In this document: piece by piece, positions 26,354 to 37,065 of the stretch | Layout: each line of letters starts with the position of its first letter | Position numbering within the stretch: position 1 is the stretch's first letter | Assembly (NCBI GenBank): GCA_963796635.1 | Contig: CAWCMH010000001.1 | Coordinates: 771,568 to 835,567, forward strand | DNA: 64,000 bases | DNA from: an uncultured Gemmatimonadales bacterium | Lineage (GTDB): Bacteria > Gemmatimonadota > Gemmatimonadetes > Gemmatimonadales > GWC2-71-9 | Direction of reading: 5' to 3' | Program-made: the position numbers and the translations under genes | Notes under the pieces: model-generated | What the model was told of the DNA's origin: nothing | Databases searched by the model: none | Seen by the model: only the letters and a program-made list of their open reading frames with translations

Positions 26354-27451
26354 TCATGGATTGAAACGGAACAGCATGACATCGCCATCCTGCACGACGT
26401 ACTCCTTGCCCTCGGCGCGCGCCAGGCCCTGTTCCCGCGCGTGCTTCCAGCCGGCGGCGCGGATGAAGTCTGCGTACGCGACGGTCTCGGCGCGAATGAA
26501 CCCAGCCGCAAAGTCACTGTGAATGACCCCGGCGGCCTCGGGTGCGCGCGCGCCGCGACGAATGGTCCACGCGCGGACTTCCTTTTCACCGGCGGTGAAA
26601 TAACTCTGCAACCCGAGCAGGTGATACGCGGCGCGCGCCAGGCGATCAAGGCCCGATTCAGTGATGCCCAGGGCGTCGAGAAACGTCGCGCGATCCTCGA
26701 TCGGCAATTCGGCCAGCTCCGCCTCGACCTTGGCCGAGAATACCACGACTTCGGCCGGCTCGGCCTCGTCGGCAATTACACGCCGCAGGCGCTCGACATG
26801 CGCGTTGCCTCCACTCAAGTCGTCCTCGTGCACGTTGGCCGCGTACAGCGTGGGTTTGGCGGTGAGCAGGTTGTAGCCGCGGAGCAGCGGCGCTTCGTCT
26901 TCGGTGACGGTCACGGTCCGTGCCATGCGGCCCTCGCTCAATGCGGCAACCAACCGTTCCAGCAGGCCGCTTTCAAGGCGGGCGGTCGCGTCGCCGGTCC
27001 GCGCGGCCCGCTGCGCCTTGTCGAGGCGCTTCTCGACGGAGCCGAGGTCGGCGAGTGCCAGTTCCGTGTTGATGATGTTCCGGTCGCGCACCGGATCGAC
27101 GCTGCCCATGACGTGCTGGATGTCGTCGTCATCGAAGCAGCGGATCACCTGCACGATCGCGTCGACTTCGCGCACGGTCGCGAGGAACTGGTTGCCGAGG
27201 CCCTCGCCTTGCGACGCGCCCTCGACCAGCCCGGCGATGTCGACAAACTGCACCGTCGCGGGCACCAGCTTCTGCGGTGCGACGATCGCGGCGATGGCGC
27301 TGAGCCGGGCGTCCGGCACCTCGACCACGCCGGTGTTCGGCTCGATCGTCGCGAACGGGTAGTTCGCGACCAGCGCACCAGCCGAGGTGAGGGCGTTGAA
27401 GAGGGTCGACTTGCCGACGTTGGGAAGGCCGACGATACCGAGGGAGAGCAT
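26354..27451 (-). CDS. ychF: redox-regulated ATPase YchF
   Basis: GIVGLPNVGKSTLFNALT, NYPFATIEPN, DIAGLV, EGLGNQFL, GFIRAE, YVVQDGD. Confidence 0.97.
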   Translation of the reverse strand: MLSLGIVGLPNVGKSTLFNALTSAGALVANYPFATIEPNTGVVEVPDARLSAIAAIVAPQKLVPATVQFVDIAGLVEGASQGEGLGNQFLATVREVDAIVQVIRCFDDDDIQHVMGSVDPVRDRNIINTELALADLGSVEKRLDKAQRAARTGDATARLESGLLERLVAALSEGRMARTVTVTEDEAPLLRGYNLLTAKPTLYAANVHEDDLSGGNAHVERLRRVIADEAEPAEVVVFSAKVEAELAELPIEDRATFLDALGITESGLDRLARAAYHLLGLQSYFTAGEKEVRAWTIRRGARAPEAAGVIHSDFAAGFIRAETVAYADFIRAAGWKHAREQGLARAEGKEYVVQDGDVMLFRFNP

Positions 27452-27458
27452 GGAAGTT

Positions 27459-27507
27459 GTTAGTCGTTAGTCGTTAGTCGTTAGTCATTAGACATTGGGG
27501 GTTGGGG
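27459..27507 (+). repeat. heptamer tandem array, left arm
   Basis: GTTAGTC x4 (27459-27486), then in-register degenerate units ATTAGAC, ATTGGGG, GTTGGGG. Confidence 0.95.
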
Positions 27508-27565
27508 TACTCGCGTGATTCGGGACCGGCTCGCGTCGGACAGAGCGAGGGTTGCCGGTGCGAGG

Positions 27566-27574
27566 TGCTACGAT
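27566..27574 (+). promoter_or_regulatory. putative extended -10 promoter (leaderless transcript)
   Basis: TGCTACGAT ends 6 nt before ATG 27581; no SD. Confidence 0.5.
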
Positions 27575-27580
27575 GCAGTC

Positions 27581-27949
27581 ATGAGCGACTATCGACGATT
27601 GGCGGTGTGGCAGCGCAGCTATCAATTCGTGCTCCAGGTCTATCGGGACAGCTCGGCGTTCCCGACGGACGAACGGTTCGGGTTGACCAATCAACTCCGG
27701 CGCGCGGCAGCATCGGTGCCGTTGAACATCGTCGAAGGCTCCGGTCGCGCCAGCGACAACGAATACCGCCAGTTCCTTCGCATCGCACGCGGGTCGTCGA
27801 ACGAGACGACATGCCTGCTGATGCTCGCGCGGGATCTCGGATACCTCGCCAGCAACGTTGCCGAACCGCTCGTGGATGAATCCGAACAACTGGGTGCGAT
27901 GCTCACCGGCTTGATTCGCGCGCTGGCACGCAAGCCCGCTAACGGCTAA
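27581..27949 (+). CDS. four-helix-bundle protein (23S rRNA IVP / bAvd-like family)
   Basis: YRRLAVWQRS, FPTDERFGLTNQLRRAAASVPLNIVEGSGR, FLRIARGSSNE, ARDLGY. Confidence 0.93.
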   Translation: MSDYRRLAVWQRSYQFVLQVYRDSSAFPTDERFGLTNQLRRAAASVPLNIVEGSGRASDNEYRQFLRIARGSSNETTCLLMLARDLGYLASNVAEPLVDESEQLGAMLTGLIRALARKPANG

Positions 27950-27966
27950 CGGCTAACGCCTAATGC

Positions 27967-27970
<4 letters not shown>
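27938..27970 (+). repeat. heptamer tandem array, right arm (inverted relative to left arm)
   Basis: GCTAACG x3, CCTAATG, CCTAT; reverse complement CGTTAGC matches left unit CGTTAGT at 6 of 7 positions. Confidence 0.93.
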
Positions 27971-30045
<2,075 letters not shown>

Positions 30046-30069: not shown

Positions 30070-30636
30070 TCAGCGGTTGAAGCGATTCATGGCACGTTCG
30101 ATCCCGTCCATCACCCAGCATTCCACTGCTTCCGTCATCGTGCCGAGCGTCGCGCTGAACGCGGCCCGCTCGGCGTCGGTCATCCGGCCCAGCACCCAGT
30201 CGGCCAGGTCGTCATACTCGGGCGGCTTGGCCCCGATGCCGATCCGCAGTCGCGGATAATCCTGGCGCCGCAACGCCCCCTCGATGCTGCGCAGCCCGTT
30301 GTGCCCGCCCGCCGAGCCCGCGCCCTTGAGGCGAAACTCGCCCGGGGCAAAGGCAATGTCGTCGACCAGCACCAGCAGATCGTCGGCCGGGTTCCACGTA
30401 GGCGACCGCAGCGGCCGCAGCGCATCGCCACTCGCGTTCATGAACGTCGTCGGCTTCAGGATGCGCACTGCGACGCCGCCCACCGTGCCCGTGACGGCGA
30501 CCGCATCGTCCGCCCGCCGGAACGGACCCAGCTGCCACTGTGCGGCCAGGTGATCGGCGAGAAGATACCCGGCGTTGTGCCGCGTGGCCTGGTACTCCGG
30601 GCCCGGGTTGCCGAGTCCGACGATCGCCTTGGCCAC
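30070..30636 (-). CDS. pth: peptidyl-tRNA hydrolase
   Basis: IVGLGNPG, TRHNAG, KPTTFMNASG, GGHNGLRSI, RLRIGIG, AMNRFN. Confidence 0.96.
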   Translation of the reverse strand: MAKAIVGLGNPGPEYQATRHNAGYLLADHLAAQWQLGPFRRADDAVAVTGTVGGVAVRILKPTTFMNASGDALRPLRSPTWNPADDLLVLVDDIAFAPGEFRLKGAGSAGGHNGLRSIEGALRRQDYPRLRIGIGAKPPEYDDLADWVLGRMTDAERAAFSATLGTMTEAVECWVMDGIERAMNRFNR

Positions 30637-35119: not shown

Positions 35120-37065
35120 CGCGCGCCAATGGCACCAGGTCGAGGAGTTCGTCGATGTGGGGCCGCAGCGAATCGAGCGTGGTCGCGCCACCGCGCAGCA
35201 AGTCGCGAATCTGGATCCGAACCTCATCGGCGCGGACGAGCGCAGCGGTGCCCCGATAGAGCAGCGCCGTGATCGGCACGATGTCCGCGCCGATCAAGCC
35301 GGCGATGGACGCGGTCTCGCCGGCTCGCTGGCGCTGCACCTCGCGGCGCCGGCCGAAGGCACGTTCGAGTGTCGACGGTTCGCCGGGAGCGCGGTCGGGA
35401 ATCCGCGGCGGGGGTGGCGGCGCGAGGGACTCGATTGCGACCACGTCGCGGAAATCGTCGGCCGCTGCCGGCCGCGCGGCGTCGAGCACGACCGCCCGCG
35501 CGTCGTCCGGTGCGAGCGATGCGATGTCGACGATGACCTCGATCGCGTCGTCCGGCGCAAGGGACGCGATGTCGACGACGTCATCCGCCCAGTGATCCGG
35601 CGCGAGCGATGCGATGTCCACGACATCGTCGCTCGAATTGTCCGGCGCGAGCGCGGCGATGTCGACCACGTCGTCGTCCACATCATCGGGCGCCAGCGAT
35701 TCGATCGAGACGATCGGTGTGCCTTCCGATGCCGCCTCGTGGCCCGCGGGTGCGGCAGCGGTCGGTGGCACTGGCGGTGGTCGCAAGGCGTGGCTGGCGC
35801 GGTGGCGCCGGCACGCCGAGGTCGAAGCCACCGGCCGGGGCGCCGGCACTCACCATCATCAGCGACGTGACGATGGCGTCGCGCCGACTGGTCAGCGCCA
35901 GCCGATCGTGCATACCGCCGGCCTCGACCAGAAACCGGCCACAGCCGCGCAGCATGGCGATGAACGCGTCGGGCCGCTGAGTGGCCACCTCATTGCTGAT
36001 CGCGGTCGAAATGGTCTCGGCGAGTGGCGCCAGGAAGTTTCCGGTGGTGCTCCGCGCGGGCATCGCCGTGAGCGTGCGGTACAGCACGAACAGGCGCAGG
36101 TCGCGGGCCGCCGCGGACGCCGGTCGCGCGAGCGCATCGGCGGCCGCGAGCAGATGATCGCCCACACTGACGAGCTCGACCGGGATCGGGTCGCCGGGTG
36201 GCAGCTGCGACGGCGGCGTGCCGGCGTGCACGATCGCGTCGACGCCCTCGGGGGCCAGTGACGCGATCGGCACAACGTCGGCTTCGCTCGCGTAGCACTG
36301 CAACAGGCGGTGGGCGATCACCTGCAGGTCCGGCGGCGGTTCGACCTGGCCCGTGTCGGCGACCATGTGCGCCATGAGGGACAATGCCGCGGCCGCTTCG
36401 GCAAAGACGCCGGCCACGTCGGGCGGCGCGGGAAAGTCGCTCAACAGGGTACGCGTGGCGACTTCCATCGCGTCGAGCAATTCGGGGAGCGGCGACAGCT
36501 CCGCCGACCCACCCAGTCCGCGCAGTGACTGCATCCGCTCGAGCACGCTTGCGAGTGCGGCGGCGGGCGGCGTGGGCGCAAGCGCATGCGACGCCCGCTC
36601 GAGCGATCCGGCGATCAGCGCCGATTCGCGCGCGATGAATGCGCGCACGCCGGGCGTGAGCGTCGACGGCGGCGCGGGGGCCGGGCGCGCGGGACGTCCA
36701 TGCATCACCTGTTCGAACTGTTCGACGAGTTGCAGCGCCTGGCGGTCGTCGGCCGCCTGCCAGCTGGATCCGCGCGACACCAGTGCGCGCAGCGCGTCGA
36801 GCCCGGCGATCCAGGCCTCGCGCGCGTGGGGCTCCCACGGCAGCGCATGATCGCGCACCTGGCGGGCGATGGCTTCGAGGCCCGCGGCGGCTCGCGCATA
36901 GGTGCCCAGGCCGGCCATCAGCGCGGCCCCGCGCAACGCGCGCGCGCCGCGAAGCAGGCGTTCGGCGTCGGGCCGGTCGTGGGCCGCGGCGAGCGGTGCC
37001 AGCTCGGTCAGGTACTCGTTCGCCTCGAGCGCAAAAAATTCGGCGCGGCGACTGGCGCTGCTCAC
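35109..37065 (-). CDS. degenerate Hpt-like scaffold protein with acidic repeats; split by a +1 frameshift near 35790-35830
   Basis: ORFs 35683-37065 and 35109-35849 overlap and share the V(P/D)IASLAP motif; FFALEANEYL..ARALRGAALMAG is Hpt-like. Confidence 0.6.
35416..35714 (-). repeat. intragenic imperfect tandem repeat encoding about 6 copies of (V/I)V(D/S/A)I(A/E)(S/A)LAP
   Basis: IVSIESLAPDD, VVDIAALAPDN, VVDIASLAPDH, VVDIASLAPDD, IVDIASLAPDD, VVAIESLAPP. Confidence 0.85.

Follow-up and report, generated by a model that had tools for sequence, protein, structure and literature searches.

A four-helix-bundle gene between inverted heptamer arrays in a Gemmatimonadales genome, and its relation to a dispersed foldback repeat family

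A 64,000-nt stretch of the genome of an uncultured Gemmatimonadales bacterium (GCA_963796635.1, CAWCMH010000001.1:771,568-835,567, forward strand), called here the window, carries between the housekeeping genes ychF and hppA a gene for a 122-aa four-helix-bundle protein of the PF05635 family, enclosed by two inverted arrays of tandem heptamers. This layout had been described in an original prediction made from the window alone, and is confirmed by the sequence, by Tandem Repeats Finder (TRF), by an inverted-repeat search and by gene calls, which all agree. Gene and arms form a unit that is gained and lost at sites between housekeeping genes, and this generalises far beyond the window. We consider it probable that the element is the gene-bearing copy of a lineage-specific foldback repeat system, that is, a cassette of the intervening sequence (IVS) type with a protein that putatively reads its own arrays, in a manner resembling the RAYT/REPIN partnership. 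Below, G000 is the genome of the window, other G numbers are the genomes compared with it, L numbers are individual loci, and C1, C2 and C13 are contigs of the stated genome.

The window element and the dispersed arrays of its genome

The left (5′) arm (27459-27507, + strand) consists of four exact GTTAGTC units (27459-27486) followed by three degenerate ones, ATTAGAC, ATTGGGG and GTTGGGG; it is G/T-rich and contains the AGT core. The right (3′) arm (27938-27972, + strand) is complementary to it, with three exact GCTAACG units (27938-27958), then CCTAATG and CCTATCT. Period-7 arrays were reported by TRF at 27455-27491 (5.3 copies, score 60) and 27938-27969 (score 41-45), and the repeat search found the arms as inverted repeats of 31 nt at 81% or 25 nt at 88% complementarity, spaced by 447-454 nt. 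Between them lie a spacer or leader (27508-27580, + strand) and the protein gene (27581-27949, + strand; PF05635/TIGR02436), whose final four codons and stop are covered by the right array. The statement that such arrays occur nowhere else is correct for the window, where only three of the 67 TRF rows are further period-7 rows, all weak and G+C-rich (8234, 9849 and 62614; scores 30-31). It does not hold for the whole genome, where 37 arrays of the GTTAGNN family are left-type and 38 are right-type.

The assembly (3.2 Mb, 67% G+C, two contigs) contains 102 rows of strong short tandem repeats (score at least 40) of period 7, compared to 8 of period 6 and 15 of period 8. GTTAGNN arrays form 26 pairs ordered GTTAG...CTAAC and a single pair in the opposite order. 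Their loops are 10-93 nt long, the exception being the 446-nt loop that holds the window gene, which is the sole gene enclosed: 25 of the 26 pairs are gene-less. The unit had been thought self-contained, a term that has to be given up, since its heptamers belong to a family of about 75 arrays across the genome, mostly gene-less, and it is not unique either. The only other PF05635 gene of G000 (paralog 2, C1:2609786-2610085) is enclosed by inverted GAGAAAA (upstream) and CTTTTCT (downstream) arrays, the element spanning C1:2609641-2610196, and about 9 GAGAAAA/CTTTTCT pairs were found in the genome, one of which encloses this paralog. Both PF05635 genes of G000 (2/2) are therefore inside inverted heptamer arrays, and the units differ between the two.

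The loops of 35 hairpins were compared, and found to be unrelated to each other and to both genes, save for one 16-nt and one 11-nt match. This means that the gene-less hairpins are not copies or deletion derivatives of a single element, and an origin as copies of a miniature inverted-repeat transposable element (MITE) or as its deletion derivatives was rejected on this ground. Decay in situ is real at the ychF-hppA site, yet it provides no explanation for the dispersed copies. According to a crude GC3-based gene caller (just 65% coding), which makes these figures approximate, none of the 35 hairpins is within a gene, many span the intergenic spacer to within a few bases in every orientation class, and the neighbouring genes are oriented ++ in 14 cases, +- in 8, -- in 7 and -+ in 6. 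The outermost arm unit in G000 is often GAAG.. on the left and ..CTTC on the right (C1:595299-595330, C1:306018-306050, window 27452-27458), and the ATG of the neighbouring gene directly follows CTTC, so that for many arms the end coincides with a start codon.

For all four gene-less arrays or hairpins examined, comparison with relatives showed insertion into an intergenic spacer: three lie at junctions of protein genes and one between 23S and 5S rRNA genes. The hairpin at C1:1184666-1184770 splits a gene pair in which, in G008, G017, G001 and G019, the stop codon overlaps the start codon (TGATG); at the same junction, G020 carries a 159-nt hairpin that is unrelated and belongs to a period-8 TTTAAGGG / CCTTAAAC-type family (L169, G020:C2:315700-316030). 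A gene-less GTTAGAC/CTAACG hairpin in the 23S-5S spacer (C1:1176639-1176708, L162:1640-1709) is missing in 5/5 relatives. The C1:595185 junction is tight (4-5 nt) in G019 and G001, and filled in G020 by a hairpin of yet another unit, while at C1:2523799 the spacers are 10-31 nt long in four relatives. Two of these four sites were struck independently in different species. A fifth one, C1:2516334, was uninformative, as its flanks could not be aligned in relatives. When filled and empty junctions were compared, no target-site duplication was definable.

Other kinds of filling and other periods were seen as well. The junction at L175 (G008:C13:12560-12770) is occupied by a 168-nt element with GGGATGACA-like inverted repeats and not by heptamer arrays; it looks like another kind of intergenic repeat. 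Period 8 was also found at L013, L023, L066 and L138, and period 9 at L112.

Arrays and genes in relatives and in other phyla

The ychF-hppA junction was compared in 30 loci, that of G000 and those of 29 relatives. A full element is present in G000 and 9 relatives. Five relatives (G021, G010, G005, G016 and G001) have a decayed copy, with arrays retained, the gene deleted or truncated, and gaps of 143-306 nt. Ten have a tight junction of 6-30 nt without array, and in the last five the junction is otherwise filled or hppA had no match. Insertion between housekeeping genes is thereby borne out, and the junction is polymorphic, not fixed in the clade. Ten occupied or truncated loci had a match to the four-helix-bundle gene, and in each of them it runs antisense to ychF. 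Units at this shared site differ (GTTAGTC, GGTCGAT, GTAGGTC, GGAAGTC, GTGAGTC and others, nine loci), which means that both arms changed in concert. Between the left arm and the start codon, an AATCTAG motif is conserved in most ychF-hppA copies of the genus (L005, L008, L016, L018, L019, L004) and is kept in decayed, gene-deleted copies too (L040, L045, L047, L048, L054); the window copy lacks it.

PF05635 matches were found in 35/41 genomes of the genus and order, G000 included. One of them, G024, is flagged as unpublished; it enters the tallies 35/41, 31/41 and 40/41 and the correlations with n = 25 and n = 41, and no claim depends solely on it. The original prediction had proposed to look for arrays at the flanks of homologous genes. 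This was done for 31 loci, 29 from relatives and the 2 of G000, and flanking units of the same period that are reverse-complementary with at most 2 differences were detected at 23 of them. The same automated test, applied around a 315-nt segment at random G000 positions, was positive for 19/3000, and a short-period array of any kind was present in about 20-23% of random flanks. Among the eight misses, one runs into the end of a contig, and the arms of two others are visibly degenerate.

Two loci, L156 (G010) and L158 (G014), encode similar four-helix-bundle proteins, both with EGY-x-WRP, and adjoin what is apparently the same tRNA gene. Their genes face opposite ways relative to this tRNA gene, and their units differ, being GTGACCT at L156 and GGTGAAT at L158. 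The difference may be due to an inversion between the inverted arms.

How specific the units are was measured by counting matches of three-unit windows in different genomes. GTTAGTC x3 (at most 3 mismatches) gave 87 matches in G000 and none in G014, G019, G034 and G026; GTTAGNN x3 (at most 1 mismatch) gave 201 in G000 and none in G008, G003, G017 and G001, which are among the closest relatives of G000 by hppA identity. Conversely, GGTCGAT x3 was found 214 times in G014, twice in G019 and never in three others, and GGTGTAG x3 30 times in G034 and 16 times in G026, a genome of the same genus, with 0 in three genomes of the window's genus. G014 has five further PF05635 paralogs, each with its own unit, and the counts in that genome for GATAGAC x3 (108), GAGATAC x3 (211) and GGTGAAT x3 (148) compare with 0-3 for each in four other genomes. 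Each of the tested paralogs (6/6, two of G000 and four of G014) lies within a family of its own, abundant in the genome that encodes it. We conclude that there is one array family per tested paralog, and that the units are specific to lineage and to paralog.

A wider scan, with one genome per species, yielded 80 loci from Planctomycetota, Acidobacteriota, Chloroflexota, Verrucomicrobiota, Bacteroidota, several proteobacterial classes, Bacillota and others. Short-period arrays were present upstream of 70 and downstream of 67. Reverse-complementary units (at most 1 difference) were found at 45/80 loci, 44 of them of period 7, compared to 175/6320 pairs in a control with mismatched loci. Nearly all PF05635 genes across phyla are bracketed by such arrays. 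With 2/2 genes in G000, 23/31 loci when relatives are included and 45/80 loci in many phyla, gene and arms do behave as the single unit that had been predicted.

The arrangement was also observed on plasmids. A tblastn search with the window protein returned 28 plasmid records, mainly from heterocystous cyanobacteria, and the 12 loci examined all had flanking short-period arrays, mostly of period 7 and one of period 8. The gene is located between cas6 and cas4 in Anabaena and Pseudanabaena, and between cmr2 and cmr3 on a Picosynechococcus plasmid; passages of PMC3936711 count 18 PF05635-type genes inside cas loci. Nostoc PCC 7120 has a right arm only, adjoining an ISL3 transposase. In Azospirillum lipoferum, the plasmid copy of the gene lies, together with its heptamer arms, entirely inside a large subunit (LSU) rRNA gene; presence of the domain in rRNA insertions is also mentioned in part of a preprint on the candidate phyla radiation (CPR). 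Degenerate or nested arms occur among the plasmid loci, and the arrays beside the Pseudanabaena gene are in direct orientation and long, with 9-14 or more units. At L013 (G038), a four-helix-bundle gene with period-8 GGGGCACG arms adjoins the 3′ part of an LSU rRNA (model 2595-2925, 83 bits), within it or just after it. Nested or compound structures, in which the arm contains or adjoins a further small hairpin or an array with a different unit, were seen at L016, L022, L066, L067 and L064.

Beyond their variety, the arrays follow common rules. The upstream arm has more G than C at 53/65 loci (9 are opposite and 3 are ties), and AG is present in 82% of the units upstream, compared to 26% of those downstream. 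As a hairpin is identical on both strands, this polarity belongs to the structure and not to the orientation of the gene. When 62 units were rotated to a common phase, a G-Y-N4-R signature emerged (G in 61/62, Y, i.e. C or T, in 58/62, R, i.e. A or G, in 62/62), with an information of 4.47 bits; 20 shuffles gave 3.28 bits on average and 3.51 at most. Four units have A at the second position (AGA core), among them those of 3/5 members of a deep, fully supported protein clade, clade B. Arms are most often 29-31 nt long (43 arrays). When cores in phase are counted, the longest chain has its mode at five units, with 26 upstream loci at five and 9 at six, and 26 and 7 downstream, whereas chains on the opposite strands are mostly of one or two.

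The protein, known systems and competing explanations

The 122-aa protein scored 120.9 bits with PF05635 (cut-off 33.8) and 120.5 bits with TIGR02436 (cut-off 24). Its AlphaFold2 model (pLDDT 96.2) has helices at residues 3-24, 35-54, 59-85 and 91-117, and the best fold matches by Foldseek were XCC0516 (2GSC, TM 0.88; phmmer E = 6.6e-23) and BT_0352 (2RLD, TM 0.83), whose entries have five chains each (A-E), followed by Avd (4DWL) and a ribonucleoprotein of a diversity-generating retroelement (DGR; 8UB7), both at TM 0.76-0.77. Invariant in 24 aligned sequences are Q38, R41, N49 and E52 in helix 2 and S72 and E75 in helix 3, S45 being nearly so; the window protein thus has the GxxRxxxSxxxNxxE-type motif that passages of PMC3936711 give as conserved in the family. 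The protein tree has two deep, well-supported clades, with no resolution inside clade A, and is compatible with one acquisition at the ychF-hppA site as well as with several.

Several other identities were considered for the protein and given up. An Avd of a DGR was rejected: the bAvd profile PF22296 gave 14.3 bits, under its cut-off of 40, and reverse transcriptase PF00078 had no match in G000 (2 contigs, 91% complete), while control genomes were positive. This agrees with the proposal that the unit lacks a reverse transcriptase of its own. With Pfam at E up to 10, PF05635 was the only match of the window protein, which leaves it without HUH (Y1) or other known transposase domain. An RNase of the HEPN type, suggested by a possible clan link, was rejected as no HEPN match came from this Pfam search, from Foldseek or from the literature. 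A role in defence was dropped, since neither G000 paralog matched any PADLOC anti-phage family.

The closest known system is the IVS of 23S rRNA, of the Leptospira and Coxiella type, which shares with the window element the protein family ('S23p'/PF05635) and the terminal inverted repeats around an open reading frame, here too with a long predicted stem. In the Coxiella IVS, according to passages of PMC4990558, three to four tandem GACAGAT heptamers are found in the 5′ part, and the 28-bp terminal stem is cut by RNase III in vitro. The window copy differs in being outside rRNA, between protein genes and antisense to both, and in that its unit is also a genome-wide family of gene-less hairpins. 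We found no mention of a general link between PF05635/S23 proteins and heptamer arrays in the literature covered, from which most subscription journals and supplements were absent.

RAYT genes are single-copy genes flanked by an inverted short repeat that is dispersed between genes, with one REPIN repeat family per paralog. The likeness to this arrangement (the REPtron) is that the gene is flanked by inverted copies of a repeat dispersed in its own genome, one family per paralog; the differences are that the protein is here a 122-aa four-helix bundle devoid of HUH or known transposase domain, and that the repeats are tandem heptamer arrays of variable copy number with unrelated loops. Eukaryotic foldback elements have arms made of tandem subrepeats, and rare copies contain a central gene. 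With these and with MITEs the hairpins have in common that they are mostly non-coding, but unlike MITEs they have no conserved internal sequence, no transposase and no definable target-site duplication.

Avd has the fold in common, and PF05635 is described as related to it in part of PMC10053308; according to excerpts of a DGR preprint, Avd is a pentameric barrel, for which an Avd-binding RNA element is described. The profile score and the missing reverse transcriptase set the window protein apart from it. Finally, dispersed heptamers are on record in Xanthomonas (GGGAATC), Nostoc (GGGGA(T/C)T), Calothrix and Beggiatoaceae (TAACTGA). Passages of PMC4692102 and PMC4679880 describe them as intergenic, tandem, lineage-specific and of unexplained origin, often in convergent inverted pairs (70-75 in Xanthomonas). 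In the main texts of these two papers, the terms searched for the PF05635/S23 protein do not occur. The families studied here differ from them in each having a cognate gene-bearing copy, and the PF05635 genes of cyanobacterial plasmids are flanked by arrays like those published. The most fitting class for the element is that of IVS-type four-helix-bundle cassettes, here located outside rRNA and with a REPIN/RAYT-like relation to a genome-wide heptamer family.

Recognition of the repeats by the protein is likely; its basis is circumstantial and consists of the pairing of paralogs with families, the G-Y-N4-R unit, the mode at five units and the five-chain relatives. Folding of the window element on the + strand pairs the arms over about 33 bp (z = -3.59). 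Under the interpretation we favour, the arms would pair in transcripts into a stem of about 30 bp cleavable by RNase III, and cleavage would allow operons and rRNA genes to tolerate the insert. Like its closest solved relatives, the protein is probably pentameric; it would recognise its own array with one heptamer per subunit, through the conserved R-G-Y core followed by four free positions. Such reading could provide self-regulation, and marking or maintenance of the protein's own family, as for RAYT transposases with REPIN repeats. The fixed polarity, in which the G-rich strand of either arm points with its 3′ end to the centre, and the unrelated loops would also fit an addition of repeats at the two 3′ ends of a break; this is speculation, and so is the corollary that repeat addition at a break in a gene junction might produce foldback insertions without transposase or reverse transcriptase.

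A number of observations weigh against the proposed partnership of gene and array. Strict complementarity was lacking at 35/80 of the distant loci, and an upstream array was absent at 10/80. G000 has 23 unpaired arrays, so that a stem is not obligatory; its dispersed copies vary at the 'Y' position (GTTAG followed by TC, GC, AC, CC, CT or GG), and its dispersed arrays show no clear mode of chain length at five. G010 has abundant GTAGGTC arrays though its ychF-hppA gene is deleted. With a generic detector (RGY-N4 x6), whose backwards control also matches arrays, making it a crude proxy of abundance only, gene and array counts correlated inside the genus (rho 0.71, n = 25) but not in other genera of the order (rho 0.16, n = 16), G031 had 8 PF05635 matches and just 6 array matches, and G023 (96% complete), without PF05635 match, had 89. 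On the RNA side, the minus strand folds no better than shuffles (z = -1.29), and a strand-specific pairing with sense G:U wobbles, as seen in the window, was dropped, because mismatches between arms at 42 loci comprised 56 sense G:U, 54 antisense G:U and 120 others. Moreover, an optimum of 30 bp for an RNase III stem would equally explain the 29-31-nt mode.

Part of these points would be expected if the genes were passive cargo, the hairpins being spread by something else and PF05635 genes being small selfish genes that land or are captured in the loops, with no specificity of protein for repeat. The arrays that persist without gene in G010 and G023, the uncorrelated counts outside the genus, the 25/26 gene-less pairs and the mutually unrelated loops all speak for such a scheme. 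We nevertheless consider it unlikely: each of the six tested paralogs is in a different family abundant in its own genome, only PF05635 genes were found enclosed in G000, PF05635 loci of many phyla have flanking arrays, and the G-Y-N4-R core is kept across phyla while the differing AGA core tracks protein clade B. Very unlikely, in our estimation, is a pure RNA-processing cassette of the IVS type, in which the arms would be nothing but an RNase III stem, the heptamers a product of slippage under selection for stem length, and the gene-less hairpins decayed copies. Decayed ychF-hppA copies with retained arms do exist, RNase III does cut the heptamer-containing Coxiella stem, and arms of about 30 nt suit a double-stranded RNA substrate; but the loops of gene-less hairpins contain no gene remnant, these hairpins arose de novo at junctions that are empty or overlapping in relatives, the 23 single arrays are unable to form stems, no G:U excess was found, and neither the polarity (26 to 1; 53/65) nor the conserved core is needed for a stem. 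As for chance low-complexity sequence or an assembly artefact, short repeats are generally abundant in a 67% G+C genome and, as said, not rare in random flanks; the controls refute this idea (19/3000 random positions against 23/31 and 45/80 gene loci), the layout recurs in finished, named plasmid records, and we give it practically no weight.

If the gene-bearing foldback repeat system is retained, a broader claim can be formulated, which we put forward tentatively and as possible, while leaning towards doubt: PF05635 proteins at large would be sequence-specific, probably pentameric readers of heptanucleotide arrays, perhaps specificity factors for their spread, each paralog owning an (R-G-Y-N4)n family, with gene-bearing copies, 23S rRNA IVSs included, as masters, and with the dispersed heptamers of cyanobacteria and others as their footprint. 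Two old puzzles might then have one answer, namely the role of the very widespread IVS-encoded 'S23p' four-helix bundle, and the origin of the over-represented intergenic heptanucleotide repeats of cyanobacteria, xanthomonads, giant sulfur bacteria and others. The pairing of paralogs and families, the core with four free positions found across phyla and the recurrent insertion at stop/start junctions make array reading testable with the 122-aa protein and a 35-nt oligonucleotide. If it is true, the protein would amount to a naturally reprogrammable module, small in size, that recognises a 7-nt repeat, and RAYT/REPIN would be joined by a new kind of gene-repeat partnership; if it is false, rRNA IVSs are still a special case of a general intergenic foldback element. 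A simple annotation rule for an otherwise opaque gene family, PF05635, is gained as well.

Flanking genes and other features of the window

The genes around the element are all on the minus strand: ychF (26354-27451), hppA (27967-30045), which encodes an H+-pyrophosphatase, and pth (30070-30636). The left array lies 7 nt from the ychF start codon, and the hppA stop codon (27967-27969, minus strand) is inside the final degenerate unit of the right arm. Consensus scans for promoters and terminators gave 0 and 0, with no sigma-70-like promoter in the spacer or leader at 27508-27580, and the locus of the element had no Rfam match to rRNA. No RNA sequencing run was listed as containing this locus, and a single DNA run was, with a share of 0.05. 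An unrelated tandem repeat of period 45/90 is located at 35481-35705 of the window, with about 4.5 copies, 68-78% matches and TRF scores of 154-230.

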